DNA of 64,000 bases from positions 2,752,001 to 2,816,000 of the forward strand of contig OZ220733.1 of assembly GCA_965116875.1 (NCBI GenBank), written 5' to 3'. Numbering within the stretch: the stretch's first letter is position 1; every line of letters starts with the position of its first letter. Position numbers and translations under genes: made by a program. Positions 15,371 to 56,767 of the stretch are shown piece by piece. Under the pieces are notes generated by a model that worked only from the letters and a program-made list of their open reading frames with translations, made no database searches and was not told the origin of the DNA. This stretch comes from Candidatus Latescibacterota bacterium. Its GTDB lineage: Bacteria > Latescibacterota > UBA2968 > GCA-2709665.

Positions 15371-15400
15371 TCCATTCCGTCGTCAACACGCCATGAATGA

Positions 15401-15431
15401 GCGGGGGCCCCGGGGTTGCCCGGGCTCCCGC
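15401..15431 (+). other. GC-rich intergenic hairpin (no U tract) after the TBDT gene
   Basis: GCGGGGGCCC pairs with GGGCTCCCGC (10 bp, one G-U). Confidence 0.45.
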
Positions 15432-15479
15432 CGGTATGCGATTCTTAATTGAGGACCTATCAACGCTGAGGAGGATACG

Positions 15480-27421: not shown

Positions 27422-27484
27422 AGCCGCTACAGTGCACATCGTCTGATATCGTTCACATCACAAGTAGAATTGCGAGGTAACGGC

Positions 27485-39017: not shown

Positions 39018-39158
39018 GGATTGGCTGTCGAATTCAGCGGTCACCAGGTTTAGACGCGCTGCAATCGGCAGTCTCAGGTGAGAATCGGCGCCAATGTTCG
39101 ATATACGGCCTGAGTTGAACCCATTTACGCCAACCTTCCGTGGAGAGGAATGTGCCGG

Positions 39159-41210
39159 ATGACTGCGAGAGAGCGTATCGTATCAATTGCCACGTTGGCG
39201 TTTCTGTTGTTCATCGTTTCTTTGGCCGCGGATTCGAACGCGTTTGCCGACTCCATGACGTTACAGAGACCCAAGGCCAATTCTCACGGCCACGTCGCCA
39301 CGTCTCTTCCGGATTTCGATGGCGACGGGACGGTTGGCTTCGGTGACTTTTTGCTGTTTGCAGAAAACTTCGGACTGAGTCACGGCGATGATGGATATGA
39401 TGCGCGGTTCGATCTGAATGGGGATTGGGAAGTCGGATTTTCGGATTTTGTGATCTTTTCACGGAACTTCGGACGGGACGGGTCTACCGATAAGCTGCAG
39501 CCCTGGGATCTTTCGAAGATTGTGGTCATCGACTCCGTGCGGTCGGCGCCCGTGGGTACCCCTGTGTTCCTCCGGACCGAATTCGCCAATGGCGAACTCG
39601 TCGACCTGGAGATGAGATTCATCGAGGTGGTGGATGATTTCATGCCTCCGATGCCGGTGTACATGGTCGAGGCATCCGATTCTGTCCTGGTAAGCCTGGG
39701 AGGCATCTCCAGGGGCATGAGCGGCTCCCCCGTATTTACGGAAGAAGGCACCTGGGGTGCGATTGCCTTCGGATTCAACTCACAGGACAGCCCGCCCTAT
39801 TATTTTTTCGCCACGCCCATCGAATGGGTGATCGGGAAAAAGGGGACGGTACCCCTGGCCAAACGCGCAGCGGAATGGAACGACAGCCGCGTCGTACCCC
39901 TGGACATCCCGCTTCTGAGTACCGGTCTCAACCGTGTCGAGCTACGGCCGGAAGGAAGTCCGTCTCTCCTGAGCAACGCCGTTGCCGCGGGTCTGACGCG
40001 TCAGCGCCAGACCAGCTTCGCGCCCGGCAGACCCCTGGCGGTCGCGTTGCTTCTGGGCGAACTGACGTTCGCCGGCCTGGGGACCATCTCCTTCGTGGAC
40101 GGCGACCGGGTCTATGGATTCGGACATTCGATGTCGGACGCCGGACCCGTGGCGCTTCCGATCATTGAGGCGAAGGTGCTCGGGGAAATATCCAGTGTGT
40201 CGGCGCCGTTTAAATTCGCAGCGCTGAACCCCACCGTGCGGGGTACGCTTACGGAAGACCGGCTGCCGGGTGTCCGGGGCGTACTGGACGACGGACCGGA
40301 CCTGGTGCCCATCAGAAGCGTATACGCCTTTCCATCGGGCGGCGAAGTTGAACTCCTGCATACGATGCCCACGATCGGCCTGACCTCTAATACCTCGGTC
40401 GAACTTGTCGCCAACGCGTTCTTCAGGCCGCTATCCAACCGGGTGGAGTTGGATCCCGATCACAGTATCCGCGTTACCGTGGACGTTTCCTTCGACGGTA
40501 CCGATTCCACGCTCTCACGCACGCGACTCTACGCCTCGCCGGAAGGACACCTGGCCTCTCTGATCCATACTGCGTTCGCCGATATGTCCTTTACGCTCGC
40601 CGGTCTGGTGACGAGGGCCGATTATGCATTGCAGGTTTCCGATGCGGGGGTTCGCGTCGAAGTGATTTCAGAGCCCCGATTCGCCCAGATCGTCGGAGTA
40701 ACCGCGGACACGGTTATGAGTGCCGGGGACTCGTTGGCCGTTACCGCATCACTGCGAGTGGGGCGCCGGATTGACCGTGAGATCGACCTGGGGCTCAGCC
40801 TTCCCGATACGTTTCCTGCAGGTATCTACCGTCTTGAAGCGAGTTCGGCTGCCGCGTTGGAAGACGACGCTTCGGGTGGAGACGGACCGCCATTGTTGGG
40901 CTTTTTCGGACCCTCCAATGGATTCGACGGCAATGAGACGCTCGAAGAAGCATTTTCAAGGGCCAATGCCAGGGACGACAATGTCGCAATAAAGGCGCGG
41001 TTGACGTTCGCCATGTCTCTCGAAGCAGTCGCCGACTCGACTGTTGCGCCCGGTGCGGGGTTCATCGGCGCATTGACCGGTGGGCTGGTGGGAGAGGGAA
41101 TTCCGCCCCCGGGTCCGACGCCGACTGTTTCCGCACAGAAGGACGTCGATCTCTTTCTGGATGGCTCAGCCAGCCTGAGCGTAAGGGTCCACGCACCGCC
41201 GGATCCGTGA
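39159..41210 (+). CDS. Secreted SpoIVB/S55-like serine peptidase with N-terminal dockerin-like paired EF-hand, copy 1
   Basis: Signal peptide, DFDGDGTVGFGDF..DLNGDWEVGFSDF, GGISRGMSGSPV, ATPIE, GTISF..VYGFGHS. Confidence 0.8.
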   Translation: MTARERIVSIATLAFLLFIVSLAADSNAFADSMTLQRPKANSHGHVATSLPDFDGDGTVGFGDFLLFAENFGLSHGDDGYDARFDLNGDWEVGFSDFVIFSRNFGRDGSTDKLQPWDLSKIVVIDSVRSAPVGTPVFLRTEFANGELVDLEMRFIEVVDDFMPPMPVYMVEASDSVLVSLGGISRGMSGSPVFTEEGTWGAIAFGFNSQDSPPYYFFATPIEWVIGKKGTVPLAKRAAEWNDSRVVPLDIPLLSTGLNRVELRPEGSPSLLSNAVAAGLTRQRQTSFAPGRPLAVALLLGELTFAGLGTISFVDGDRVYGFGHSMSDAGPVALPIIEAKVLGEISSVSAPFKFAALNPTVRGTLTEDRLPGVRGVLDDGPDLVPIRSVYAFPSGGEVELLHTMPTIGLTSNTSVELVANAFFRPLSNRVELDPDHSIRVTVDVSFDGTDSTLSRTRLYASPEGHLASLIHTAFADMSFTLAGLVTRADYALQVSDAGVRVEVISEPRFAQIVGVTADTVMSAGDSLAVTASLRVGRRIDREIDLGLSLPDTFPAGIYRLEASSAAALEDDASGGDGPPLLGFFGPSNGFDGNETLEEAFSRANARDDNVAIKARLTFAMSLEAVADSTVAPGAGFIGALTGGLVGEGIPPPGPTPTVSAQKDVDLFLDGSASLSVRVHAPPDP

Positions 41211-41476: not shown

Positions 41477-43444
41477 ATGACATCAAGGGAGAAATTTGCT
41501 TTTGCTTGCATTGTAGCGTCGCTGGCATTCGTTTCATTCATCGCCGCGGGCCTGGACGCGCATGCCGATCCTACGACATTGCAAGAGGGGACCGTCAATT
41601 CCGACGACGAAGACACGACATTCCTGCCGGATTTTGACGGCGACGGGACGGTCGATTTCAACGATTTTTCGCAGTTCGCGTCAAAATTCGGACGAAGGCA
41701 AGGCGATGACGACTTTGAGGCCCGGTTCGACCTGGATGGAGACGGGGAGATTGGGTTTTCTGACTTTGTGTCGTTTTCGCAAAATTTCGGGAAGGACTTT
41801 TCTTACGGGATGCTCCTGCCCTGGGATCTTTCCAGAATCGTGCCGATCGACTCAGTCAGGTCCACGCCGGTCGGTACGCGTGTCTTCATGCGGACCGAAT
41901 TCGACAAAGGCCGACTCGTCGACCTGGAGATGACGTTCATCCAGGTGGTGGACGATTTCCTGCCGCCCATGCCGGTCTATATGGTGGAAGCTTCCGATTC
42001 CGTGCTGGTGGCTCTGGGAGGCATCGCCAAGGGGATGAGCGGTTCCCCGATTTTTTCGCCGCAGGGCGTCTGGGGGGCGATCGCCTACGGTTTTAACGCA
42101 CAGGACAGCCCGCCCTACTACTTTTTCGCCACGCCCATCGAATGGGTCATCGGAGACAGGGGCACGGTTCCACTGGCCAAACGCGCGGCCGCGTGGGGCG
42201 AAAACAGTATCGTGCCCCTGGACGTGCCGCTGTTGAGCACCGGCCTTAACGGTCATCAGATTCTTCCCGAAGAGAGCCCGTCGCCCCTGAGCCACGCGGT
42301 CGCCGCCGGTCTGACAACACTGCGCCAGACGAGTTTTGCGCCCGGCAGACCGCTTGCGGTGGGTTTGCTGCTGGGCGAACTGACGCTCGGCGCCTTCGGG
42401 ACCATCTCCTTCCTGGACGGCGACAGGGTCTACGGATTCGGACATTCCATGGATGACGCCGGCCCGATCTCGCTGCCAATCATCGAGGCAGTGGTTCTGG
42501 GAGAAATCTCGAGTTTGTCGGCGCCGTACAAATTCGTGACGCTGAACCCGACGGTACGGGGAACGCTCACCGAAGACCGCATTCCCGCGGTGCGGGGAAT
42601 ACTCGGCGAAGAGCCGGAGCTTGCACCGATCCGAAGCGTGTATTCGTTTCCTTCCGGCGGAAAAGTTGAGCTACTTCATACGATGCCCACCGTTGGAGTC
42701 AGCCCGGATATGTCTGTCGATCTGGTCGTGCGTGGGTTTTTCAGACCGCTCCTGGGCAGGGTTGAGAACGATCCGGACCACAGCATCCGCGTAACGTCGA
42801 ATGTCTCATTCGACGTTACCGATTCCACGCTGACGCGAACCCGTCTCTTCGCCTCCCCGGAAGGACGGTTGTTTTCCCTGATCAGAAATGCGACCTCGGA
42901 CCTGTCCGTCTCGCTCGGCCGGTTGATGGGGAGGGACGACTACGCTTTGCAGGTGACGGAAGCCGGGGTCGACGTAGAGCTGATCGCAGAGCCCCGATAC
43001 GCCAGGATCCTCGAAGTGAACGCGGACACGGTCGCCAGCCCCGGGGACACGCTGGACGTTACCGCGTCGTTGCGGGTTGGGCGGCGGATCGATCGGGAGA
43101 TCGATCTGAGACTCGGCGTTCCCGAACAATTCCCCCCCGGTGTCTACAGTCTGGTCCTGGGTTCGGCCGCGGAGCTGGCGGCGGGCGGCGGACCGGGTTT
43201 CGGCCGATTCCCAATCCGGCAGACGCTGGAAGAAGCGATCGACGAGGTCAACAGCGCGGATCACAACGTCGTGCTGGAAGCCATGCTGACGTTCGATATG
43301 CCCTTCGGATCGCCCGGAGGTCAGGGACGTCCACCCGGTCAGGGGGGTGGCCCGCGGCCGTCCACCTCGGTACAGAAGGACGTCGATCTGGTCCTGCGTG
43401 GGCTGGAGAGCGTGTCCGTAAAGATCGTTGTACCGGCGGAGTAG
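41477..43444 (+). CDS. Secreted SpoIVB/S55-like serine peptidase with dockerin-like paired EF-hand, copy 2 (tandem paralog)
   Basis: DFDGDGTVDFNDF..DLDGDGEIGFSDF, GGIAKGMSGSPI, VYGFGHS. Long identical peptide blocks shared with copy 1. Confidence 0.8.
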   Translation: MTSREKFAFACIVASLAFVSFIAAGLDAHADPTTLQEGTVNSDDEDTTFLPDFDGDGTVDFNDFSQFASKFGRRQGDDDFEARFDLDGDGEIGFSDFVSFSQNFGKDFSYGMLLPWDLSRIVPIDSVRSTPVGTRVFMRTEFDKGRLVDLEMTFIQVVDDFLPPMPVYMVEASDSVLVALGGIAKGMSGSPIFSPQGVWGAIAYGFNAQDSPPYYFFATPIEWVIGDRGTVPLAKRAAAWGENSIVPLDVPLLSTGLNGHQILPEESPSPLSHAVAAGLTTLRQTSFAPGRPLAVGLLLGELTLGAFGTISFLDGDRVYGFGHSMDDAGPISLPIIEAVVLGEISSLSAPYKFVTLNPTVRGTLTEDRIPAVRGILGEEPELAPIRSVYSFPSGGKVELLHTMPTVGVSPDMSVDLVVRGFFRPLLGRVENDPDHSIRVTSNVSFDVTDSTLTRTRLFASPEGRLFSLIRNATSDLSVSLGRLMGRDDYALQVTEAGVDVELIAEPRYARILEVNADTVASPGDTLDVTASLRVGRRIDREIDLRLGVPEQFPPGVYSLVLGSAAELAAGGGPGFGRFPIRQTLEEAIDEVNSADHNVVLEAMLTFDMPFGSPGGQGRPPGQGGGPRPSTSVQKDVDLVLRGLESVSVKIVVPAE

Positions 43445-44495: not shown

Positions 44496-44526
44496 GTGAA
44501 TCGCTGGAATGCGCTCGGAGGTGAAG

Positions 44527-47500
44527 ATGATGTTGCCTGTCGTGCAGGATGCGCCGGTCCCGCGGCCGGGACGGTCCATCTGGTACACGGTGGATGCGAT
44601 TCGGAGGGCGCGGGAGAATATCCGTACCCATGCGTGGGCAGAAAGAGAGTGGGCGCGTATCAGCGCGGTTGCGGAGAAGTGGGTTCGGATGACTGACGAC
44701 CAGATACACGCACTGGTACCGGCCCGGGGGTCGATTTTCTGCAGCGGGCGGAACGGGAGCCCCTGCTGCAAGGCGGCCTGGCGGTGCGACGTGTCGCAGC
44801 CCGAAAAGGCGTACTGCGAGGCGTGTGGAAGGGAGTATCCCGAGACTCGCAAGGGGTCTCCGTTTCGGGACGAAGGACACGGTTTCTATTACGAGGGGAA
44901 ATGGTTTGCGCCGGTGCCCGTGTGGAACAGCTTTATTGTCAGTATGCTGAGTACCTATTCGTACGGGTCGGGCGGCCCCACGGATAACGCACTGTTGAAT
45001 CTGGCACTGGCCTACGCGATTACGGGCGAGACCCGATTCGGTGAAAAGGCGCTGTTCATTTACGATGCGCTGGCCACACTGGCGCCCACAACGATCGGTC
45101 CGCTGGATATTCCCGAGGGTCAGGAGCGGGAGATGGGTCGCATGCACGCGGAAACCTGCCACGTCAACCGGCAGCGCTTCGTGGACATGCAGGCGTACGA
45201 CCTGATCTCCGGTCTTCCGGCAATGGACGAGGTTTCGCCCTCGCGGGAGAACGGGCGCACAAGCATCCGGGAGAATATCGCCGGGGGGATGCTGGAAGAC
45301 TACGTGATGACGGAGGGCGGCGGGTACAATCTGCGCGAAGGAAATCTCACGCACTTCCAGAATCACGAACTGGACGGATTCCGGGCGCTGCTGTCCATCG
45401 GACTGGCGACGGACAGGCCCGATTTCATCACGTGGGCGGGCAGCGCGTTCCGGTCCTTTCTGGACAACGTGATCGGCCGGGACGGGGGGTACTACGAGAA
45501 CTCCGAGATGTACGCGTACTTCTCCGGTACGCTGATGCAGGACGTGGCGGAGTTGATGTACCACTACGATCCCGCCAGGTACGCGTCGTCCGAAGAATAC
45601 CCGAGGGCGGAAACGCTGATGGGGATCAGAAACGCATTCGATCACCCCCGCCTCGTCCGGCTGTGCCTGGAATACCCGGAGCTGACGCGGGCGTGCGGGC
45701 GCATCCCGTCTTATGGAAACACGAACGCGCTCCCGGGTTACCGGCCGCCTTCGGAACGGCAGGTGATGCCCTCGCAATGGTCTCTGCTGGAGCGGCTCTA
45801 CACTCGGAGTGACGACGCCGGAACGAGGCTCCGGGCGAAGGAACTGATGCTGGACCTGTCGGACGGCGCGGCGGAAAACGTCCGCAACGGCGCCTGGGCG
45901 CTGTTCAATTCGGAACCCGGGCCTGCCGGGGAAGGGCGGGCCGGTCCGCAATCCGCCTCTTCGTTCGCCGGTCACAAGGGCGTGGTGGTACTCCGCAGCG
46001 GCGCCGGCGACCGGTCGCGGGCGCTGGTTGTGCGGGGGGGCGCGAATCTGCTCTCACAGGACGACCAGTTGGCGGTTTTCCTGTACGACAGGGGCAGGAC
46101 GGTCATCGAAGACGTGGGGTACGCACTGGCCGGTTCGCAGGTGCACAAAGGATGGGGCATGCGGGCGATCTCCCACGCGATGGTGACGGTGGACGAGGAC
46201 ATTCCCACGTCCCAGGGCTACGAATTCGTACCGAGTGCGGACCTGGTCGCCTTCGAGGACCTGGGCGACGTGAAGGTGGCGGAATATTCGGCGCCGCTTT
46301 CACGCGTTCACCAGGGCGCAACCGGGTACCGCCGGGCGCTGGTCTTCTGCGACGTGGATGAGGCAACGTCCTATACGCTGGACCTGTTCCTGGTGGCCGG
46401 GGGGCGCATCCACGACTACGCGATGAACGGGCCCAGGTTCTTCGAAGAGGACTCCGGGTCGTATTCGCTGGAAGGCGTCTCGCCCCGGGCCGTCCCGGGG
46501 GTCTGGACACTTGCGGCGCTGGGGACGATGGACGGCTCCGAGGAGGCGAACGCGCCAGGCAGGAGTTGGGGGGAGCGGATCGGCCCGAACGACCGCATTC
46601 AGGGCGTGGCCGCCCCGGATGGAAGCCCGTTGCCCTACGGGTGGCTGCCGCCCCCCGGGAACGGGTACGCGTTCATCCACGACGTCAGGACCGCCCCGCT
46701 GGATCGCGACGCGTACGCTCGCTGGCGGTTCGGAGATGCGCGGGATACCCGGTTCGGCGTCTGGTTTCCCGCCGATCCTTCAGCGACGCTGGTGGCAGCG
46801 AAGGGTCCCGATCTGCGAGGCGCGCAGCAGATCCACCGTCTGATCGTTCGGAGGGAAGGCGAGAACCTGAAGAGCCTCTTCGTCAGTGTATTCGAGGCTC
46901 ATTCCGGGTCGCGCAGCGTGACGGGCGTAAAGGTGCTTGCGCGAGAGGAGGAAGCAGGGAGCGCGGCCGTGCGGGTCGAACTGGCGGACGGCCGGCGGGA
47001 CACGCATCTGTTTTCAAGGTCCGGCCGGATGGAACTGCGTGACGGCGACGGGGTACCGATCGCGCTTGAGGGACGGTTCGGCGTTGTTCGCGAACGGAAC
47101 GGCGAGGCGGCGCTTCACCTCGTGGAAGGGACGAGACTGCGGTATGGGAGCACCGAAACGCGGCTCTCCCGGGCGGTCTTCGACGCACGAATCATGGAGC
47201 TGGACGCCGATGGGGAATCCGTCACGATCGACCGGAGTCTCCCGGACGGTTTGCCGCTGGACGGGCGCCTGTGCCGGGTGGAATCGGGCGAGGCGGAAAC
47301 GCCCTATTCTCACGGCTCCGCATATCGGATTGCCGCCGCGGAGGACGGGAGGAACGCCCGTCTCCTCCTGCAGCACGGCGATCCCCGGCTGGTGAGAGGC
47401 AAGATTGTCTCGGTCGAGCCCCCGGACGTTCTGGTCTGCGACGTGCCGCTCGCGTTTGCATGGGGGTTCAACAACAGTGGGGACAAGGGTGAATACAGGG

Positions 47501-47691
47501 GAAAGCAGTTGCGTACGGAGGACGGCGCCTTCGCGTCGCGAATCGTCGAACTGCTTGCATTCAAGAAGATCCGGCTGGAAACTGTGGCAGGACTGCGGGC
47601 GGGGAGCCGGTTCGAAATCCTGGACTTCAAGCCCGGCGATCGGATTTCGATTCCGAATTCCGGCAGCGAATGCCTGGATCGGCGGGGCTGA
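44527..47691 (+). CDS. Large heparinase II/III-like lyase-fold protein with N-terminal Cys-rich (putative Zn-ribbon) insert
   Basis: SPCCKAAWRCD..YCEACGREYP, LALAYAITGE, FQNHEL, DGGYYENSEMY, EDVGY, SHAMVTVDE, YRRALV..DLFLVAGG..HDY. GGAGG SD. Confidence 0.72.
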   Translation: MMLPVVQDAPVPRPGRSIWYTVDAIRRARENIRTHAWAEREWARISAVAEKWVRMTDDQIHALVPARGSIFCSGRNGSPCCKAAWRCDVSQPEKAYCEACGREYPETRKGSPFRDEGHGFYYEGKWFAPVPVWNSFIVSMLSTYSYGSGGPTDNALLNLALAYAITGETRFGEKALFIYDALATLAPTTIGPLDIPEGQEREMGRMHAETCHVNRQRFVDMQAYDLISGLPAMDEVSPSRENGRTSIRENIAGGMLEDYVMTEGGGYNLREGNLTHFQNHELDGFRALLSIGLATDRPDFITWAGSAFRSFLDNVIGRDGGYYENSEMYAYFSGTLMQDVAELMYHYDPARYASSEEYPRAETLMGIRNAFDHPRLVRLCLEYPELTRACGRIPSYGNTNALPGYRPPSERQVMPSQWSLLERLYTRSDDAGTRLRAKELMLDLSDGAAENVRNGAWALFNSEPGPAGEGRAGPQSASSFAGHKGVVVLRSGAGDRSRALVVRGGANLLSQDDQLAVFLYDRGRTVIEDVGYALAGSQVHKGWGMRAISHAMVTVDEDIPTSQGYEFVPSADLVAFEDLGDVKVAEYSAPLSRVHQGATGYRRALVFCDVDEATSYTLDLFLVAGGRIHDYAMNGPRFFEEDSGSYSLEGVSPRAVPGVWTLAALGTMDGSEEANAPGRSWGERIGPNDRIQGVAAPDGSPLPYGWLPPPGNGYAFIHDVRTAPLDRDAYARWRFGDARDTRFGVWFPADPSATLVAAKGPDLRGAQQIHRLIVRREGENLKSLFVSVFEAHSGSRSVTGVKVLAREEEAGSAAVRVELADGRRDTHLFSRSGRMELRDGDGVPIALEGRFGVVRERNGEAALHLVEGTRLRYGSTETRLSRAVFDARIMELDADGESVTIDRSLPDGLPLDGRLCRVESGEAETPYSHGSAYRIAAAEDGRNARLLLQHGDPRLVRGKIVSVEPPDVLVCDVPLAFAWGFNNSGDKGEYRGKQLRTEDGAFASRIVELLAFKKIRLETVAGLRAGSRFEILDFKPGDRISIPNSGSECLDRRG

Positions 47692-47774: not shown

Positions 47775-47802
47775 TTGAAAATTCGAGATATTTCCATATT
47801 AT
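47775..47802 (+). promoter_or_regulatory. Putative sigma70 promoter upstream of the membrane triad
   Basis: TTGAAA-16 nt-TATTAT, about 110 nt before ATG 47913. Confidence 0.45.
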
Positions 47803-47912: not shown

Positions 47913-49877
47913 ATGCAACAGACGCAACCGGATTCGATTCCTGAAACGGCGTCAGGCCTGGAACGACGCGGCGTAACCATGCGGGCGGTGGCGATCGGGC
48001 TCGGCGTCGCTCTGTTCATACAGGGCTGGGGCATCTTTTCCAGCCGGGTGATCCGGTCGTCCGGCGTGACGTCCGGATTTCTTTCGCCCGCACTGTTTAT
48101 CGCGATCCTACTCGTCCTGTTCGTCCTGAATCCCTTCCTGAGGCGGGTCGTTCGGTCCGCGGGGCTCAGCCTCGCGGAGATCCTGACGATATTCGCGATG
48201 GGACTGATGGGCGGCGCGCCCATCGCGGCATTGTATGCCTTCATCACCATACCGTACTACCTGGCCACTCCGGAAAACCAGTGGGGCGCGCTTCTTCACC
48301 CGCACCTGCCTTCGTGGGTCGCGCCCCTCGACGTGGACGGCGCCGTTACGCTCCTGTTCAACGGCCTGCCGGGCGGTCAGGGCGCGATTCCATGGGGGGC
48401 GTGGGTCGTGCCCATGTTCTGGTGGGTGCTGCTGTTCTGCGTGCTGGCGTTCGCCGCGGCTTCGCTTTCGGTGATCCTCCGGAAACAATGGGTGGAACAC
48501 GAGCGGTTGAGATACCCGGTGCTGGAGCCGATCGTGGAGATGGCCTCCGGCTCCGATACGGGCGGTCTGTGGCCGAAATTCGCCCGGGGCAAGCTGTTCT
48601 GGTTCGGGGCGGGGTTCGCGTTCGTCTTTATCTTCTGGAATGCGCTGCCCTGGATCTCCCCCGCCTTTCCCGAGATGCCGGTTCGGGGGCGGGTGTACGC
48701 CTTCTTCGGGCGGGATATGCCGCCGATGTTCAGCTATATCGATCCGTTCACGTTCGCGTTTTCCTATTTCGCGAATCTGGACGTTCTGTTCAGCGTGTGG
48801 TTCTTCTTCGCCGTGTTCGTGCTGGAATTCGGGATTTTCAACCGGCTGGGCTACAGTATCGGAGGGCGCGGCGACCGGTACGGTTCCTATGACGCGGCAT
48901 CAAGCTGGCAGGGCCTGGGCGCGTTCTGCGTCTTCGTGCTGTTCGGTCTGTGGATGGCCAGGCGCCACCTGAAAGACGTTGTGATGAAGGCCTGGCGGTC
49001 CGACCACTCCGTGGACGATTCCGGTGAGATGCTGTCGTACCGCACCGCGGTTGTCGGCATTCTGTTGGGCTTCGTGTTCACGGTCGTGTGGCTGAACCGG
49101 GCGGGCATGGACCTGCAGATGGCCATCCCGCTGGTGGCGATGCTGTTTGTTCTCTACATCGGCGTGGCGCGGATTATCGCCGAATCGGGCCTCCTGTACG
49201 TGCAGGGCCCAATGACCGCCCAGAGTTTTTCGGTCTATCTGCTGGGGGCCAAAGCCGTGTCGCCGTCCAGCCTGACCACGCTCCTGTTTTCCTACCCGAT
49301 CCACGCGAATTCGACCTCGCAGATGTCTCACGTGGCCAAGGTGGGCGAACAGGTCCGGGATCGCGGAAGGCGCCTGTTCTGGGCAGTGGGCCTGTCCTTT
49401 CTGGCGACGACAATGGTCGTGATCATCGGGACGCTTTTTCTGGGCTATACCCGCGGCGCCGAGAATTTCGGACACGGCTTCATCTGCGGGGGCGTCCATA
49501 ATTTTCCGGATACCGTGAGCAAGATCAAGGAGCCGTTCGACGTCGACTGGAACCGGATCATGTTCTTTGGTATCGGCGCCGCGGTGATGGTGGTCCTTAC
49601 GTTCCTCCGCTACCGGTTCCCGTGGTGGCCGATCCACCCGGTGGGGTTCGCCATTATGGGTACGGATCTGGTACGGAATTTTGCGCTGACCCTGTTTCTG
49701 GCGTGGTCGTGCAAGACGGTTATCCTGCGGGTTGGCGGGAACTCACTGTTTCGGCAGGCGCAGCCGTTTTTCCTCGGCCTGCTTGTGGGGCACGTCCTTG
49801 GGATAACCGGGGCATTTCTCGTGGACATGTTCATGTTCCCCGGAGCCGGGCACAGCATCCATCCGTGGATCGAATAG
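47913..49877 (+). CDS. DUF6785-like polytopic membrane protein (distantly OPT-like), copy 1
   Basis: Many hydrophobic segments. GVTMRAVAIG, YYLATPENQW, IPWGAWVVP, LRKQWVEHERLRYP, ARIIAESG, RFPWWPIHPVGF, PFFLGLLVG. Confidence 0.75.
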   Translation: MQQTQPDSIPETASGLERRGVTMRAVAIGLGVALFIQGWGIFSSRVIRSSGVTSGFLSPALFIAILLVLFVLNPFLRRVVRSAGLSLAEILTIFAMGLMGGAPIAALYAFITIPYYLATPENQWGALLHPHLPSWVAPLDVDGAVTLLFNGLPGGQGAIPWGAWVVPMFWWVLLFCVLAFAAASLSVILRKQWVEHERLRYPVLEPIVEMASGSDTGGLWPKFARGKLFWFGAGFAFVFIFWNALPWISPAFPEMPVRGRVYAFFGRDMPPMFSYIDPFTFAFSYFANLDVLFSVWFFFAVFVLEFGIFNRLGYSIGGRGDRYGSYDAASSWQGLGAFCVFVLFGLWMARRHLKDVVMKAWRSDHSVDDSGEMLSYRTAVVGILLGFVFTVVWLNRAGMDLQMAIPLVAMLFVLYIGVARIIAESGLLYVQGPMTAQSFSVYLLGAKAVSPSSLTTLLFSYPIHANSTSQMSHVAKVGEQVRDRGRRLFWAVGLSFLATTMVVIIGTLFLGYTRGAENFGHGFICGGVHNFPDTVSKIKEPFDVDWNRIMFFGIGAAVMVVLTFLRYRFPWWPIHPVGFAIMGTDLVRNFALTLFLAWSCKTVILRVGGNSLFRQAQPFFLGLLVGHVLGITGAFLVDMFMFPGAGHSIHPWIE

Positions 49878-50061
49878 ACTGACGTAAGAAGCTGTCTTAA
49901 AATTACCGGTGCGTTCCCGAGCGCGAGCGAAAAAGCGGCGGTCAAGGCGGGAAAAGCCGCCCATATTTGTCTATACGGGTGGATTTGACCAACGCCGACC
50001 GGCGCTTTTGCAGCCGCGCAAAGACCGCTGGGAATTTTAACACAGCTTCTAAGGGTGAACG

Positions 50062-53000
50062 ATGATCAGCGGAATCAAAAGGGTACTGCTTTCTCTGTTG
50101 ACGCTCGGCGTCCTCGCACTCGTGGTGGTGTTCGACCCCGAGGATGTGTCCGACGTGATCAGGGATACGCTCGATATCCGGCAGTCACCGCCGCCCGCAG
50201 AGGTCCGGGGGGACCTGTCGGCCGCGGACCGGGCGGTACGGCGGGTTGTGGATGGAATCTCTGAAGACGACGTCCGCGCCCACGTGGCGGCCCTGACCCG
50301 GATGCCGTCGCGCGTGGTGGGATACGGCGGCGAACGGCAGGCGCGGGCCTACATCAGATCGCAGTTCGAGGCGCTGGGTCTCGAGCCGGTGAGCACGGAG
50401 ACGTTCGATGTGACCGTGCCGGTGGACCGGGGCGGCGTACTGAAGGTGACCGCCACCGGGGAGGAGATTTCCATTTACGGCCTCTGGCCGAACGACGTCC
50501 GGACGCCGACGCTCCCGGCCGGAGGCGTCGAGGGGCACCTGATCTACGGACGGCGCGGGGAGTTTTCGGACTTCAACGGGTCGGTCGTGGACGGAAGCGT
50601 CGTGTTGATGGACTTCGGCTGCGGACAGAACTACCTGAACGCGATGACCCTCGGCGCGAAGGCCATTCTCTTTTTCGACGACGGGAACGTGACCCGAGGT
50701 GAGGCGGAGGACAAGTTTCTGGAGGTGCCCGTGAACGTGCCCCGGTTCTGGGTGAACCGGGAGGATGCGCAACGCCTTCTGAATAAGGTTGAGCGCGGAG
50801 ACGTCAGGGTGCGTCTCACGGCCCGGATGGACTGGCAGACGGTGAAGGCGGCCAATGTCCTCGGATATCTGCCCGGATCGGACGCGCGCATTCCGGGAGG
50901 AACGGGCGCCAGGTGGAAGGACAGGCTGATTGTGGTAAGCGCCTATTACGACGCCATGTCCGTGGTGCCCGCGCTCGCCCCCGGCGCCGAAAGCGCATCG
51001 GGAGCCGCCGCCCTGCTCGAGGTGATCCGTTCGCTGAAGCGACACGGTTCCAGGTACTCCTTCCTCTTTCTGGCGACGTCGGCGCACTTCGAGGGGCTGA
51101 CGGGAATCAACGATTTTCTCTTCAGACATTCCCGCCGAAGCGATTATTTCCGGGACCGGATCCCCGAGGGCGAACGGATCGATTTCAGCCTGTTCATCGG
51201 GCTGGACCTGTCCAGCCGCAGCAGACAGGTGGGCGGATTCGCGATGGGGACCTTCTACAACGCCCGCAAGGGGACGGACGAATACCTGAAAAACCTGCTG
51301 ACGCCCTATTCGCACCGGTTCCGCGAGTACACCGGAGCACTCTTTCCGGATGAAGAGCGCTACGTGGACGTGGTCGCCCCTGCCAAGCGGCCCTGGACGT
51401 CGTATATGCCGGTCCCGCTGGCGCTGGAAAGCGAGGCCGCCGTTTTTGTCGGTCAGGAGGCGATGACGCTCGTGACCCTGTATGACGGTCGCGTCCGCAC
51501 CGACACGCCGCTCGATGTTCCGGAGGCGATGGCCTTTCCCCGGTTGACGGACCAGGTGCGGTCGGTTGCCGCAATGATGATCAGGGCGGGTAACGACCCG
51601 GGCTTCTTCCGCGAGACCCAGCTCCGGCTGATGGACCGCGGGCACCGCCTGTCCGGGCGGATTCTCTGGTTCGACCGGGACGTTGACTTCGCGATTCCCA
51701 GGGTGCCGGTTCCGGGAGCGCTGGTGACGTACAAGCAGCCGGGCCCCGGCAGTCTGGCCGGCGTGCGGACGCTCATGGTCACGCAGACCACCAGAGGCCC
51801 GATTTACGAGGGGCCGGCCTCCGGAGGGGGGTTGTACGGTTCCGGGAAAGCGGTCGCGCAGACCGGCCGGTTTGAATTCGATATCGTGAGAAACCGCTTT
51901 TCAAATCAGATTCTGGCATATGAACTCGACGCTGAGGGACGGATTGTCTCGGCGCCGGATATGGGAATAGACGGCGCCGGGTCGGATGGAAGAAACGGGA
52001 AGTATCCCCTGGTCCAGGGATACGGATGGTGGGACAACGAGATGATGGGCGTGCTGTTCAGGTGCCGGTCGCTGAGCCTGTTCGAGATTGTGGATTCCAG
52101 CTATCTGTCCGTGCTGGACCATATGAAGGTGCTGGGAAGGGACAACAGCGAACCGATAGAATACGGATTCCGGTACGTGGCCAACCAGGGCCGGAAGGAA
52201 GGAAAGGTCACCCAGGCGTCCGTGGCATTCGCTCCACCCGGCGAGCGGATCAAGATCCTGATGAGCAGCGGGCTCTTCGGAATCAAGTACCTGCTCATCA
52301 ACGCGCCGGAAGACCTGTTGAACGATCCCGTGGCTGCGCGACAGGTGAACGCGGAGACGGTGAAACGATCCATGGGAGCCGGGTACGTCCCGGACGGAAA
52401 TGCAATTACCCTGCCTTCATACCGCGCGGCGCGGGATATGTGGATCGTGGATGACGTCCGGATGAAGCAGCTGGCCCGGTACGGCGTCGAGAACCAGAGG
52501 CTTTCAAGGCTTCACGACCGTGCGCGCGCGTCTCTGCTCGAGGCGAACAGTCACCTGGAAAACCGCCGGTACGACCGTTTCATTGCATCGGCCAGGGAGG
52601 GCTGGGGGCTCGAGGCGCGCGGCTACCCCGAGGTGAAAGAGACAGCCAACGACACGGTCCGCGGCGTCATCTTCTATTTCGTCCTGCTGCTGCCGTTCTC
52701 GTTCTTCTGCGAGCGGCTGTTTTTCGGGTTTTCCGACGTCCACCGGCGGATTATCGGATTCGCCGCGATTCTCATTGCCATGTTCCTGGCCTTGCGGTGG
52801 GTACATCCCGCGTTTCAACTGTCCGGTTCTCCGTACATCATCTTTCTCGCCTTTGTCATCCTGTGTCTGGGCGGGGTGGCGATGGTGATCGTCGTGTCCC
52901 GGTTCGCCGATCAGGTCAGGCGCCTGAAGCAGTCCGCAACCGGTGTGTACGAAGAGGACGTGGGACGGATCTCGGCGACCATTGTGGCGTTTACGCTGGG

Positions 53001-54774
53001 GGTTTCGAATCTGCGAAAGCGACCGCTGCGCAGCGGGCTCACGGCGGTGACGCTGACCCTGCTGACCTTCACGGTGCTATCGTTTACGTCGGTTCAGACG
53101 TACTTGCGTTTCTACAAATTGCCGAGAGACAACCGGCCGCCCTACGAGGGAGCGCTGGTGAGAGACCGGAACTGGAGGGGCATGCAGCCCTCCGCGCTGA
53201 CCTATATCCAGAGTCACTTCGGCGGCTTCGCCCGGGTAGCGCCCCGGGCGTTTTACATTTCCGAAAAAAGAGGCGAGCGGGCGTATATCGACTTTGAGGA
53301 ACCCGAAAGCGGCCGGCGGAGTTTCGCGAACGGGCTGCTGGGCGTGACGCCGGTGGAGCCCCACGTGCTGGGGATGGACAGGCTGCTGACGGCCGGCCGC
53401 TGGTTCCGGGAGGGCGAACGGCACGCTGTCATATTACCGGGCGAACTTGCGGAACTCGTGGGGATCACCGGTGCGGACGTCGACGCCGGCCGGGCGAGGG
53501 TGCGAATGTTGGGGGTGGAGTTGGCCGTCGTCGGGATTCTGGACTCCGGGGCCGTGGACAGGCTTGCGGATATGGATGACGAACGCCTGACGCCCATCGA
53601 CACAACGATGGAGACCGCGGGAACGAGCGACTGGCGCAACCTGAGCCAGGACCCGAGGCTGATGGGAGCGGAGCCGATCGAGGCGTTCATTCACCTGGAC
53701 ACGAGCAATACCGCGCTGCTCCCGTACGAATTCGTCATTGAAATCGGGGGCACCCTCAGGTCGATTGCAATCACCGATTTCAAGGACGCCCAGGGCAACC
53801 CCAGCCCCGACGTCCGCGGGCAGATCGAAGACTTCATGTCGCGGGTTGCGCTGACGATGTTCGTTGGGATCGACGACGAGGTGACGGTTTACAGTTCCAT
53901 CGGCACCACCTCGCTTTCCGGCATCGCGAATCTCTTCATCCCTCTGGTGATCGCCTCGCTCATCGTCTTGAATACGATGATGGGCGCCGTGTACGAAAGA
54001 TTCCGTGAAATCGGTGTCTATTCGGCGGTGGGGCTGGCGCCCAGCCACATTTCCGCGCTCTTCCTGGCCGAAGCGGCCGTGTTCGCCACACTCGGAGCGG
54101 CGTTCGGCTACCTGATCGGCCAGGCGGTGGCGATGGTCCTGTACGAGCGGGGGGCGCTGGGCGGGCTTTCGTTGAACTACTCTTCCCTGTCGGCGGTTTC
54201 TTCCACGCTTATGGTCATGCTGGCGGTATTCCTGTCCACCCTCTATCCGGCCAGGAAGGCCGAGCAGATGTCCGTACCGGACGTGACGCGGCGGTGGCAG
54301 TTTCCGGATCCGGAAGGGGACGCCTGGACGTTCGACTTTCCGTTCACCCTGGCGGGATCGGAAGCCCTCGGGATGTACACCTATCTCTTTCGGTGTTTCG
54401 AGTCGTTTGGCGAGGGTTCCCTGGGCCGCTTCGTTTCGCAGGACGTGCGTTTCGGGTCCGATCCGCTTCCGGCCGGAACGGGATACCATATCGCGCTGCG
54501 GATGTGGCTGGCGCCATACGATCTGGGCATCAGCCAGGACGTTCAGATGGTTGCCATTCCCACGGGAGAACACGAAATTTACCGGATAGAGGTCCGTATC
54601 CATCGCCTGAGCGGAGACGTGAACTCGTGGCAGCGCGTGAACAGGGGCTTTCTGAACGACCTCCGCAAGCTCTTCCTGGTATGGAAGACGATGCCTCCGG
54701 AAACGAAGACGGACTATGCGCGGCAGGGCGAGGCGGAACTGGAATCGTCGCCGGTCCGGGAGGTCGCGTCCTGA
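50062..54774 (+). CDS. 1570-aa fusion: PA + degenerate M28 peptidase ectodomain, extra TM bundle, MacB-like periplasmic domain and FtsX-like permease
   Basis: SRVVGYGG, LIYGRRGE, ANVLGYLPG, IVVSAYYDA..PGAESASG. Also SNLRKRPLRSGLTAVTL and LNTMMGAVYERFREIGVYSAVGLAPSHISALFLAEA, LYPARKA. Confidence 0.82.
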   Translation: MISGIKRVLLSLLTLGVLALVVVFDPEDVSDVIRDTLDIRQSPPPAEVRGDLSAADRAVRRVVDGISEDDVRAHVAALTRMPSRVVGYGGERQARAYIRSQFEALGLEPVSTETFDVTVPVDRGGVLKVTATGEEISIYGLWPNDVRTPTLPAGGVEGHLIYGRRGEFSDFNGSVVDGSVVLMDFGCGQNYLNAMTLGAKAILFFDDGNVTRGEAEDKFLEVPVNVPRFWVNREDAQRLLNKVERGDVRVRLTARMDWQTVKAANVLGYLPGSDARIPGGTGARWKDRLIVVSAYYDAMSVVPALAPGAESASGAAALLEVIRSLKRHGSRYSFLFLATSAHFEGLTGINDFLFRHSRRSDYFRDRIPEGERIDFSLFIGLDLSSRSRQVGGFAMGTFYNARKGTDEYLKNLLTPYSHRFREYTGALFPDEERYVDVVAPAKRPWTSYMPVPLALESEAAVFVGQEAMTLVTLYDGRVRTDTPLDVPEAMAFPRLTDQVRSVAAMMIRAGNDPGFFRETQLRLMDRGHRLSGRILWFDRDVDFAIPRVPVPGALVTYKQPGPGSLAGVRTLMVTQTTRGPIYEGPASGGGLYGSGKAVAQTGRFEFDIVRNRFSNQILAYELDAEGRIVSAPDMGIDGAGSDGRNGKYPLVQGYGWWDNEMMGVLFRCRSLSLFEIVDSSYLSVLDHMKVLGRDNSEPIEYGFRYVANQGRKEGKVTQASVAFAPPGERIKILMSSGLFGIKYLLINAPEDLLNDPVAARQVNAETVKRSMGAGYVPDGNAITLPSYRAARDMWIVDDVRMKQLARYGVENQRLSRLHDRARASLLEANSHLENRRYDRFIASAREGWGLEARGYPEVKETANDTVRGVIFYFVLLLPFSFFCERLFFGFSDVHRRIIGFAAILIAMFLALRWVHPAFQLSGSPYIIFLAFVILCLGGVAMVIVVSRFADQVRRLKQSATGVYEEDVGRISATIVAFTLGVSNLRKRPLRSGLTAVTLTLLTFTVLSFTSVQTYLRFYKLPRDNRPPYEGALVRDRNWRGMQPSALTYIQSHFGGFARVAPRAFYISEKRGERAYIDFEEPESGRRSFANGLLGVTPVEPHVLGMDRLLTAGRWFREGERHAVILPGELAELVGITGADVDAGRARVRMLGVELAVVGILDSGAVDRLADMDDERLTPIDTTMETAGTSDWRNLSQDPRLMGAEPIEAFIHLDTSNTALLPYEFVIEIGGTLRSIAITDFKDAQGNPSPDVRGQIEDFMSRVALTMFVGIDDEVTVYSSIGTTSLSGIANLFIPLVIASLIVLNTMMGAVYERFREIGVYSAVGLAPSHISALFLAEAAVFATLGAAFGYLIGQAVAMVLYERGALGGLSLNYSSLSAVSSTLMVMLAVFLSTLYPARKAEQMSVPDVTRRWQFPDPEGDAWTFDFPFTLAGSEALGMYTYLFRCFESFGEGSLGRFVSQDVRFGSDPLPAGTGYHIALRMWLAPYDLGISQDVQMVAIPTGEHEIYRIEVRIHRLSGDVNSWQRVNRGFLNDLRKLFLVWKTMPPETKTDYARQGEAELESSPVREVAS

Positions 54775-54799
54775 ACGGGCAAACTGAGGAATATGCGGT

Positions 54800-56767
54800 A
54801 TGGCGAGTCCCGCCGGGCAACGCGAAGTCGATGCAGCCGGACCGAAGTTGGCGATCACCGGGGTTTCGGCGCGCGCCCTGAGCGTAGGCCTGGGCATTGC
54901 CGCCCTGCACAATTTCTGGAGCCTGCACTCGCTCTATATCATCCGGGGATCATGGCTGAACCGGACTCACTTCCCCATGGGCGTGTTCGTGCCGTTCCTG
55001 ATCCTCGTCCTGGCGACTCCGGTCCTCCGGCGGTTCGTACCCAGATGGGCGATGTCCGGCCCTGAACTCCTGGTGGCGCTGTGTGCGGGCCTGGCGGGGG
55101 GTATGGTGCCAACGTTCGGGCTGTCCACGACCTGGATCGGCATGCTGGCCATCCCGCATTATCTCGCCACGCCGGAGAATCAGTGGGGAGAGTACCTCCT
55201 GCCCCACGTGCCGGGATGGATGGTGCCGTCCAACGCGCAGGGAGCCATGAGATGGCTCTTCGAGGGTCTTCCCCCCGGTGAAGGGATTCCCTGGGGTGAA
55301 TGGGCAGTTCCCCTCTTCTGGTGGACGGCGCTGCTGGGCGGCATGGCGCTGGTTTCGTTCTGTACGGTTGCAGTGCTGCACCGGCAGTGGTCGGGGCACG
55401 AACGGCTGGCCTATCCCATCCCCTCGGTGGCCTCGGACATGGCGGAGGGAGCCGTAGGCAGAGGTGAATGGGCGGGGCTTTTGCGGAACCGGCTGTTCAT
55501 TGCAGGATTGTCGGCCGCGCTGGCGATCAAGGTCTGGAACATGGTGCCGGCCTTCGTGCACGGATTCCCGATGATCCGTCTGTTTCACCAGCAGTTGTGG
55601 GTGTATTTTACGCAGTACTCCATGGTCCACGTGAGCCTGAACTTCTACACGATCGGGTTCGCGTACATGACGGGCCTGGACCTGCTGCTGAGTATCTGGC
55701 TGTTTCATCTATTCTACATTCTGGAGATCGCGGCGTTCGCCAGGGTTGGGCTGGGCGTCGCGGGATTTTCCGGCGGAGACGTGTCATGGCAGGGCGGCGG
55801 AGCGATGATGTGTTACGTGGGGCTGGCGCTCTGGACGGCCCGGGGGCACCTCCGGCGCGTGGTTCGCCGGGCGCTGGGACGAACGGACGGCGCAGAGGAC
55901 GCCGGGGAGATCATGCGGTACCGATGGGCGGTGTGGGGCCTGGTTCTGGGGTTGGCTTTTGTCATCTGCTGGTTGCGGATGGCCGGTATGGGACTGCTTC
56001 TGGCCACGGCGCTGACCCTGCTGTTGTTCATCAGTTACCTGGGTCTCGCGCGGATCGTGGCGCAGACCGGCCTGCTCTACGTCAACCTGCCGCAGAGCGC
56101 CCAGGGGTTCGTTCTGGGCACCGCGGGCGCGGCGTCCATTCCGGGATCGGGACTCACGGCCATGGCGTTTACCAATGTCTTCGCCAACGACCACATGGGC
56201 CTGTTCATGCCGGCCTTCGTGCAGATTGCAAAGCTGGCGGAACGGGTGGAGCGTCACCGCAAGCGGCTGGGTTGGGTTGTGGGGCTGGGCCTGTTGACGA
56301 GCATCGCGACGTCCGTGGCCCTCACCCTTTACTGGGGGTATTCCGGCGGGGCGTACAATTTCGGCAGTATCGCGCTGTTCCGGAGAACGGTGCCGAGCGT
56401 GAACGGATACGTGAGCCACATGCGCAGCCCGGACCCCGTTCAGGCGGCGCCGTTCATTCTCTTTGCGGCCGGCGCCGCGGGGATGGCCCTGCTGGCGTTC
56501 CTGCGATACCGGTTCAACTGGTGGCCGGTGCACCCGGCCGGGCTGGCGGTGGGCTACACCGGCATGACGAGGCACGCGGCCTTCAGCATCTTTGCCGCAT
56601 GGGTCTGCAAGTTTATCGTGATTAAAACAGGCGGCATGCTGCTCTACCGGCGGACCGTGCCGTTCTTTATCGGGACCATTGTCGGATACGCTTTGGCCGT
56701 TCCCCTGGGTTACGTGCTGGACGTAATCTTTTTCGAGGGTCAGGGGCATGCCGTACACGCATACTGA
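54800..56767 (+). CDS. DUF6785-like polytopic membrane protein, copy 2
   Basis: GVSARALSVG, HYLATPENQW, IPWGEWAVP, LHRQWSGHERLAYP, ARIVAQTG, RFNWWPVHPAG, PFFIGTIVG. Collinear with copy 1 (655 vs 654 aa). Confidence 0.75.
   Translation: MASPAGQREVDAAGPKLAITGVSARALSVGLGIAALHNFWSLHSLYIIRGSWLNRTHFPMGVFVPFLILVLATPVLRRFVPRWAMSGPELLVALCAGLAGGMVPTFGLSTTWIGMLAIPHYLATPENQWGEYLLPHVPGWMVPSNAQGAMRWLFEGLPPGEGIPWGEWAVPLFWWTALLGGMALVSFCTVAVLHRQWSGHERLAYPIPSVASDMAEGAVGRGEWAGLLRNRLFIAGLSAALAIKVWNMVPAFVHGFPMIRLFHQQLWVYFTQYSMVHVSLNFYTIGFAYMTGLDLLLSIWLFHLFYILEIAAFARVGLGVAGFSGGDVSWQGGGAMMCYVGLALWTARGHLRRVVRRALGRTDGAEDAGEIMRYRWAVWGLVLGLAFVICWLRMAGMGLLLATALTLLLFISYLGLARIVAQTGLLYVNLPQSAQGFVLGTAGAASIPGSGLTAMAFTNVFANDHMGLFMPAFVQIAKLAERVERHRKRLGWVVGLGLLTSIATSVALTLYWGYSGGAYNFGSIALFRRTVPSVNGYVSHMRSPDPVQAAPFILFAAGAAGMALLAFLRYRFNWWPVHPAGLAVGYTGMTRHAAFSIFAAWVCKFIVIKTGGMLLYRRTVPFFIGTIVGYALAVPLGYVLDVIFFEGQGHAVHAY

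Follow-up and report, generated by a model that had tools for sequence, protein, structure and literature searches.

A giant FtsX-type membrane protein paired with DUF6785 proteins in Latescibacterota, a candidate envelope system related to type VII ABC transporters

How could a membrane protein with an FtsX-type module work when no ATPase is encoded beside it, and what would it do between two polytopic proteins of the family DUF6785? This question is raised by a gene triad in a 64-kb stretch of DNA from Candidatus Latescibacterota bacterium (G000:C1:2752001-2816000, contig OZ220733.1), which is called the window below. Three collinear open reading frames (ORFs), all on the + strand, were found at exactly the coordinates given in the original prediction. 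Gene A (47913..49877) encodes a polytopic membrane protein of 654 amino acids (aa) with the domains DUF6785 and DUF6784 (PF20581, PF20580), the giant gene (50062..54774) encodes a protein of 1570 aa, identified by Pfam, hydropathy and PDB profile match, and gene B (54800..56767) encodes a second DUF6785 plus DUF6784 protein of 655 aa. Coordinates of the triad and of other features within the window are counted from the window start; genome-wide scans were made on the 5.45-Mb genome, with gene calls by ORF and GC3 heuristics.

The best explanation of the whole, to which a probability of roughly 45% is given, is an undescribed phylum-wide envelope system related to ATP-binding cassette (ABC) transporters of type VII, in which giants would work together with OPT-like partners and an ATPase supplied in trans. 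The triad would then be one of four paralogous cassettes, each made of a giant plus an OPT-like partner, in this Latescibacterota genome.

The pairing of the giant with a DUF6785-type gene is widely conserved in Latescibacterota. Four giants were identified in the genome, three of them flanked by DUF6785 and two by p693, a polytopic protein of 693 to 806 aa without Pfam match, which follows two of the four giants and proved remotely homologous to DUF6785 when compared by hhalign (probability 96.3%, E 1.5e-9, 201 columns). The closest public loci numbered 80, and in the 79 that were scored for partner genes DUF6785 or p693 was present within 1 kb on the same strand in 65 and somewhere in the locus in 75. 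Three of the four loci without a partner (L055, L069, L080) have 2.1 kb or less downstream of the giant, and in the fourth (L099) the match ends 8 bases from the locus end. In a phylum-wide set, DUF6785 or p693 was adjacent to the giant in 18 of 20 further Latescibacterota loci. One or the other lay within 2 kb of 87 of 102 Latescibacterota giant genes, and the conserved co-occurrence for which the original prediction proposed to look is borne out by the survey.

The arrangement varies among these 102 giants. Written as upstream, giant, downstream (G, giant; D, DUF6785; P, p693; -, none), it is -/G/P in 41, -/G/D in 19, D/G/D in 12, D/G/P in 8, D/G/- in 6 and P/G/- in 1, with no partner in 15. 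The D/G/D arrangement, which is that of the window, forms a single clade with support 100, and gene B sits at the downstream position taken by p693 in other giant clades. In a triad of another species, 74% identical to that of the window (L028), both flanking DUF6785 genes (7986-9941 and 14708-16855 of that locus) are A-type, 75% and 72% identical to A, so the downstream copy was replaced or converted. All 19 p693 matches checked by coordinates, in 10 genomes, lie within about 2.1 kb of a giant, and intergenic gaps are very short or overlapping in many giant/partner loci. Of the 61 Latescibacterota genomes sampled, 48 contained giants, and many of these had 3-5 copies.

The giant had been described as an M28/PA ectodomain joined to a MacB/FtsX-type membrane module, and Pfam and PDB profile matches agree with this. 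FtsX (PF02687) was matched at residues 1292-1401 (6e-14) and Peptidase_M28 at 282-417 (4e-05), and PA (PF02225) at 168-239 fell just under its cut-off (E 1.4e-04, 22.4 bits against 23.9); in NCBIfam only sub-threshold matches to MacB, ADOP and FtsX were obtained. A profile of residues 850-1565 matched PDB chains of MacB, YtrF, LolF, LolC and FtsX, the best being MacB 5lil (2.3e-12). From hydropathy and a positive-inside N-terminus, the giant would start with an N-in anchor (residues 8-26) followed by a periplasmic region of about 830 aa, three transmembrane (TM) helices (865-944) and a cytoplasmic loop ending in a typical FtsX N-terminal motif; then come TM 993-1011, some 270 aa inserted on the periplasmic side, a group of three TMs (1280-1394) and a cytoplasmic tail of 175 aa. 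We infer from the sequence this order of domains, including the periplasmic ectodomain and the cytoplasmic C-terminal domain.

The ectodomain consists of PA and a degenerate M28 domain, plus about 400 aa of no assigned fold. The PA domain (residues 168-239, 50563..50778) could be aligned to the PA insert of aminopeptidase YwaD, and the M28-like domain (residues 282-417, 50905..51312) to YwaD and leucyl aminopeptidase, with loss of the canonical catalytic site. Compared with these two enzymes, AHYD was changed into AYYD, GA(N)DNGSG into GAESASG and the catalytic EE into AH. In 82 of 82 giants the catalytic Glu was Gly, Ala or Ser, the next Glu was His and the bridging Asp was Glu; the first His ligand was Phe in 33, Tyr in 26 and His in 23, and the last M28 His ligand was not located in the alignment of giants. 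Since the catalytic residues are replaced, the canonical M28 mechanism is lost in giants, and the domain was rightly called a pseudo-M28; a different single-metal site may be present in it.

Between the ectodomain and the FtsX-type module stand three extra TM helices (residues 865-944, 52654..52893), which were delimited by hydropathy and invariant columns. They are highly conserved and have no counterpart in MacB, and in an alignment of the four genome paralogues their region contains the invariant polar residues D864, R867, E884, R885 and H915. The MacB/FtsX-type module (53038..54264), composed of TM 993-1011, the periplasmic insert and TMs 1280-1394, was defined by PF02687 and the PDB profile. 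Its coupling-helix motif is VYERFREIG, of which YERFREIG aligns with ERTKEIG of MacB. In an alignment of 39 diverse giants the R of this motif was invariant and Y, E, E and I were conserved in at least 90%. Two positions of the motif are variable, so that a strict regular expression recovered it in only 48 of the 102 giants, and the claim of conservation is therefore based on the 39-giant alignment. The insert gave no Pfam match of its own and a weak partial alignment to the periplasmic domain of MacB in the PDB profile search, and some members of the giant family carry MacB_PCD (PF12704). When four sub-regions of the giant were searched against Pfam at E <=10, nothing but a chance-level match to NMT1_2 was returned.

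The giant ends in a family-specific cytoplasmic C-terminal domain (residues 1398-1565, 54253..54756), which was recognized by profile search. No Pfam match was found for it, the best E value in a PDB sequence search was 0.19, and an Atlas search with the C-terminal domain of a giant homologue gave no usable match. This domain of about 165 aa was found in 1590 representatives at 50% clustering (E <=0.001), and in the best 150 of them it nearly always forms the very C-terminal end of a protein 1450-3050 aa long. At 90% clustering there are at least 2031 relatives of the giant, whose names say no more than 'FtsX-like permease family protein', 'M28 family peptidase' or hypothetical. The giant has one FtsX domain and no fused nucleotide-binding domain (NBD). 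A second giant clade possesses a conserved operon of its own (L013, G000:C1:454693-467204, and 25-30 related loci), with genes for a ConA-like protein (284 aa), the giant, p693, a 161-aa protein, a metallophosphoesterase (461 aa) and a 692-aa protein.

Proteins A and B are paralogues as had been claimed, with 36% identity, about 12 hydrophobic segments each and the motifs YLATPENQW, QW..HERL.YP and WWP.HP in both translations. PF20581 and PF20580 (cut-offs 25 and 26.4 bits) were matched by A with 1.6e-99 (334 bits) and 7e-24 (84 bits), and by B with 9.3e-103 (345 bits) and 7e-20 (72 bits). Both domains were present in all 120 relatives of A listed, which are unnamed or called 'DUF6785 family protein', and no paper was found in a literature search for the name DUF6785. 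For the homologue P0070, which is 39% identical to A, the Atlas model could be superimposed on that of an OPT cluster with TM scores of 0.69/0.75 over 548 residues, which suggests, from a homologue, that DUF6785 may have an OPT-like fold. The feature-based Atlas neighbours of a DUF6785 homologue were 'peptide transporter' clusters (0.77-0.79), which are leads only. With the OPT profile (PF03169), one DUF6785 copy of the genome gave E 0.005, below the cut-off, and p693 compared by hhalign with 11 true OPT proteins of the phylum reached a probability of 14% (E 0.002), which is not significant. No internal repeat was detected in DUF6785 when its N-terminal and C-terminal halves were compared by hhalign. 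DUF6785 resembles the OPT family in length, in the number of TM segments and in the alignable homologue model, but has no significant profile similarity to it. The OPT likeness of the original prediction is supported by the modelled fold of a homologue and fails at the level of sequence profiles, and we speak of an OPT-like fold and not of the OPT family because DUF6785 has no sequence-profile membership. No partner protein is known for OPT carriers.

The genome contains 23 DUF6785 genes, often in tandem pairs or triplets. Genes for oxidoreductases, aldo-keto reductase, GHL10-like protein, DegT aminotransferase, PhyH and SBP_bac_1 were found beside them, and such an expansion beside catabolic genes would look like the pattern expected of nutrient carriers. 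Examples of tandem copies are L016:3497-7584, L018:4528-8603, L019:3532-12952 and L020:3021-12089, and one pair precedes an SBP_bac_1 gene (L018:8575-9876). Another DUF6785 gene (L017:7345-9369) abuts the ORF of a taurine/nitrate-type ABC ATPase (L017:9370-10143; together G000:C1:4467345-4470143), which starts at the base directly after the DUF6785 ORF, with no ABC permease seen alongside. That DUF6785 itself would be an ABC permease was rejected, as an ATPase lies beside only two of the 23 copies and one of these is of the taurine/nitrate type.

As the original prediction had it, no ATPase is encoded in the window: all 72 ABC_tran matches of the genome fall outside these 64 kb, the nearest lying 84 kb from the FtsX domain of the giant. 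The further claim that the module works without an ATPase was not supported. ABC_tran is missing within 5 kb of 18 of the 25 FtsX gene groups in the genome, so orphan FtsX is the rule here and the absence of an ATPase neighbour is uninformative. In giant cassette 4 of the same genome the order is ABC, DUF6785, giant, p693; its ATPase (3889933-3890721 on the contig) is of the LolD/FtsE/MacB class (TIGR02211, 4.8e-69) and gives scores with models of exporters as well (DarD, DevA, bacteriocin exporters). This order recurs in L101, L102 and L125, from the same genus and one genome of another family, and orthologues of this ATPase at 71% identity or more were found in giant-bearing families only.

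A more complete operon was found in the distant families f6, f8 and f11 (L109, L121-L124), in which (DUF6785), TPR, giant, p693, u293, a PqqD-like protein, a short FtsX and an ABC ATPase of the LolD/MacB class are tightly linked. The ATPase for which the original prediction also proposed to look is missing within 5 kb in the close loci and present in the operons of these three families. The short FtsX has 228 aa, no periplasmic domain and the same ER(F/Y)REIG motif as the giant. The PqqD-like protein matches PF05402 (7.5e-12 and 2.2e-11), and u293, a protein of 293 aa, represents a soluble single-copy family whose members have about 300 aa and share invariant Trp, Cys and His positions; it gave no Pfam match and nothing significant in a PDB profile search. 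The u293 gene was beside the PqqD-like gene wherever checked (L124:5984-6865, L109:3861-4832, G000:C1:4511719-4512828), and by coordinates it is directly 3' of p693 in f3, f6, f8, f11 and f12. These parts and the giant have a common pattern of presence and absence: over the 61 genomes the giant was present in 48, p693 in 47, short FtsX in 44 and u293 in 43, and each was found in 0 of 13 genomes of family f9. The short FtsX adjoins the ATPase in every genome compared by coordinates, and the two form a single-copy pair in giant-bearing genomes. In the present genome the ATPase occupies 749314-750042 and the short FtsX 750095-750799, with u293 and PqqD located at 4511254-4512828, both groups sitting among unrelated genes. 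Judged by these gene neighbourhoods, an ATPase probably belongs to the wider giant system.

In passages of PMC5985334, MacB-type proteins are described with four TM helices, a periplasmic domain, and major and minor coupling helices contacting the NBD. According to the same paper and PMC12646458, they offer the substrate no path through the membrane, and the hydrolysis of ATP does work in the periplasm. For this reason the giant is read as the working part and DUF6785 or p693 as the membrane path. By analogy with MacB the giant itself would form no channel; an ATP-driven conformational change would do periplasmic work, and the ectodomain might act as a receptor which captures, holds or hands over a substrate. 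The ATPase would be supplied in trans, the candidates being the product of 749314-750042 and its cassette-4 paralogue at 3889933-3890721, and it would perhaps be coupled through a heterodimer of the FtsX module of the giant and the short FtsX. The route through the inner membrane would be formed by proteins A and B, or by p693 in other cassettes. A single ATPase/short-FtsX core would serve several giants that differ in ectodomain and partners, and the finding of more than one giant but one core in a genome suggests that the giants are specificity subunits which can be exchanged. For the cassette of the window the most likely direction would be uptake of an oligomeric breakdown product, which is favoured by the local context and by the expansion of DUF6785 in catabolic clusters.

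A more specific form of this proposal is somewhat unlikely as a whole. In it, a mechanotransducer of the type VII ABC kind would be physically coupled to a secondary carrier of OPT fold to give a hybrid machine, with the giants docking on the shared short-FtsX/ATPase core as exchangeable receptor subunits, each with its own carrier, and with the PqqD-like peptide-binding protein and u293 acting on the cytoplasmic side. If true, ATP-driven periplasmic work and a carrier-type path would be combined in one complex, a new transporter design, and DUF6785/DUF6784, p693 and the giant family, whose C-terminal domain matches 1590 clusters at 50% identity, would receive their first function.

With the type VII ABC proteins (MacB, LolCDE, FtsEX, YbbAP-TesA, YtrF) the giant shares the FtsX-type four-TM module with an extracytoplasmic insert after the first helix and the ERxxEIG coupling-helix motif between TM2 and TM3, and the wider giant system shares with them an ATPase of the LolD/MacB class. 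According to PMC5985334 and PMC12646458, members of this type do periplasmic work and often partner with periplasmic enzymes. Unlike them, the triad locus has no fused or adjacent NBD, and a single FtsX module is placed in a protein of 1570 aa behind about 830 aa of PA, degenerate-M28 and other ectodomain and three extra TM helices. Further differences are the private cytoplasmic C-terminal domain of about 165 aa, the obligatory neighbour of OPT-like fold and, in the wider system, a separate short FtsX without periplasmic domain. No description of this domain combination or of these distinguishing features was found in literature searches.

ADOP permeases (TIGR03434) are likewise of FtsX type and commonly without a neighbouring ATPase, but they have about 800 aa, two FtsX domains and no M28/PA ectodomain. 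The giant was rejected as an ADOP, with 25.1 bits against a cut-off of 622.3 and a single FtsX domain. Arrays of ADOP-like duplicated FtsX permeases of about 800 aa, mostly with no ATPase gene nearby, occur in this genome at G000:C1 1755642-1791894, 1353328-1357233, 2411654-2415881 and 5296486-5301120. Nicalin and nicastrin resemble the giant in that an M28-like domain deprived of its catalytic residues faces away from the cytoplasm in a multi-pass assembly of the membrane; they differ in being eukaryotic and in having entirely different membrane partners. The match of the giant to nicalin near YDA..V.P.L..GA(E/D)S..SG (E 0.026) was weak and not significant.

Several observations weigh against the preferred explanation of giants working with OPT-like partners and a trans ATPase. 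For the partner, PF03169 gave no match to A, B or p693 at E <=10, hhalign of DUF6785 against 11 true OPT proteins of the phylum gave a probability of 0.5%, and the OPT-like fold was taken from one Atlas comparison of a homologue. In the family tree the giant-linked DUF6785 copies form no single clade but are mixed with free ones, which speaks against tight co-evolution of an interface. For the ATPase, an ABC ATPase was found within 5 kb of the giant in 0 of the 79 loci and within 10 kb in 3, and one adjoined the giant in only 3 of the 20 phylum-wide loci. Its assignment to the giants is drawn from the operons of three families and from the phyletic pattern. As related genomes are not independent, one loss in f9 may have produced this pattern, and the short FtsX with its ATPase could be a self-contained pair merely neighbouring giants. 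The PqqD-like component suggests that peptides are handled, and that they are perhaps exported and not taken up. Neighbour genes vary among giant clades, so the polysaccharide context of the window is only local.

The absence of ABC_tran from the window and from 5 kb around the giants in the 79 loci is what an ATPase-independent system, the model of the original prediction, would give. In this unlikely case an ion-driven heteromeric importer would be formed, with the giant as a passive periplasmic receptor or scaffold and the two DUF6785 proteins translocating oligosaccharides or glycopeptides; the MacB-type module would be uncoupled from any NBD, which perhaps is replaced by the private C-terminal domain. 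That family-specific cytoplasmic domain does follow TM8, at the place of the minor coupling helix of MacB, the 23 DUF6785 copies stand mostly without giants or ATPases, as would be the case for self-sufficient secondary carriers, and the cassette lies in a setting like a polysaccharide-utilisation locus. However, the canonical coupling motif is among the best-conserved stretches of the giant and is common to the ATPase-adjoining short FtsX. The operons with an ATPase in f6, f8 and f11 and the LolD-class ATPase beside cassette 4 also speak against it, as does the single-copy candidate pair at 749314-750799; with orphan FtsX permeases usual in the genome, the absent neighbour decides nothing.

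PqqD is a fold known for binding peptides, and the PA and M28 folds bind peptide termini. The PqqD-like protein and the soluble u293 in the operon of the giant, with u293 directly downstream of p693 in five families, would therefore fit a system for peptide export or envelope handling. A peptide would be prepared by u293 and the cytoplasmic PqqD-like protein and moved to the periplasm by the OPT-like protein (p693 or DUF6785), and the ATPase-driven giant would release, process or expel it. The scores of the ATPase against exporter models agree with this, and MacB-type pumps are described in passages of PMC5985334 as working on periplasmic substrates. All the same, export is rather improbable. 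Beside the cassettes examined there was no sign of a gene for a precursor peptide, a modifying enzyme, a membrane-fusion protein or an outer-membrane duct. In this genome u293 and PqqD are encoded far from every giant, and 3-5 giants per genome, in contexts that vary, are more in keeping with nutrient capture than with a single secreted product. Moreover, the proteins of the OPT family are known as importers.

It is equally improbable that no physical complex is formed at all, the giant and DUF6785 or p693 being separate machines kept together by co-regulation; for example, what the giant produces from a substrate in the periplasm or envelope would be taken up by an independent carrier. This would suit the polyphyly of the giant-linked DUF6785 proteins, which seem exchangeable with free copies. 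In the genome 19 of the 23 DUF6785 genes have no giant nearby, the nearest relative of B there is a free copy (2884633-2886603, 51% identical), and the type and side of the partner vary among D/G/D, -/G/P, -/G/D and D/G/P. Against separate machines stand the constant nearness of p693 to a giant (19 of 19 in the genomes checked) and the very short or overlapping gaps in many loci, as well as the three conserved extra TM helices, whose invariant charges have no obvious role in a MacB-type bundle.

In the remainder of the window, a TonB-dependent receptor, two heparinase II/III-like genes, an FGE-sulfatase-type gene and a GFO/IDH/MocA oxidoreductase are encoded together with FG-GAP and carrageenase-like propellers, which by gene content looks like a polysaccharide-utilisation region. 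The triad had been said to be flanked by lyase-fold genes. This applies in a loose sense only, its immediate neighbours having no clear family: the upstream one (44509-47691) had no match in Pfam, NCBIfam or PDB sequence searches, and the downstream neighbour of gene B had weak beta-propeller/FG-GAP matches only. The two clear heparinase II/III-like genes (27470-29827 and 33668-36409) lie 11-20 kb upstream of the triad. The proposal that the transported products feed cytoplasmic lyases was not sustained, since flank synteny of the triad is confined to close relatives and the L028 triad stands among TPR, spermine-synthase-like and esterase-like genes instead. Two paralogues of about 670 aa (39150-41210 and 41477-43444) contain a weak SpoIVB/S55-like stretch, and one of them also has dockerin/EF-hand-like calcium motifs.

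Upstream of gene A a weak sigma-70-like hexamer pair (47775..47802, +) matches 10 of 12 positions. In a 9.5-kb scan three such sites were found against a chance expectation of 2.1, so the pair is no evidence for the promoter that had been thought possible. A hairpin repeat of about 170 bp with the inverted ends GAAGCTGT...ACAGCTTC lies between gene A and the giant gene (49884..50056) and was recognized by BLAST copies and folding (z -6.7). It has 126 BLAST matches in the genome, 64 of them of at least 160 bp, with the best copies listed being 93-96% identical; its depth in metagenome contigs is 100-1000x, and no match was found for it in an Rfam scan. Where the repeat sits, the gap between the ORFs of A and the giant measures about 20 bp in orthologous loci, for instance L021. 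The repeat looks like an inserted miniature inverted-repeat transposable element (MITE) or an element of REP type and does not belong to the system.

By their labels, the sequencing runs containing the locus are mostly sponge metagenomes. Contigs of one RNA library match A at 48595-49009 (5 differences), the giant at 52579-52936 (6) and B at 55512-55898 (7), with about 98% identity. They cover parts of the locus only and show no transcript structure, and with DNA carry-over possible they give a weak hint that the triad is expressed.

Taken as a whole, the giant system appears as an uncharacterised machine related to type VII ABC transporters, with an unprecedented architecture and partner, which is common in an uncultivated phylum. 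None of its parts (the giant, DUF6785 and p693) has a described function in the literature searched. For annotation, the lesson is that FtsX proteins which look like orphans can have a candidate ATPase encoded far away. MacB-type modules are thought not to move substrate across their own membrane, and a fixed carrier-like partner would be a new solution. Such a system could explain the uptake or release of large substrates by these uncultivated, apparently sponge-associated heterotrophs.

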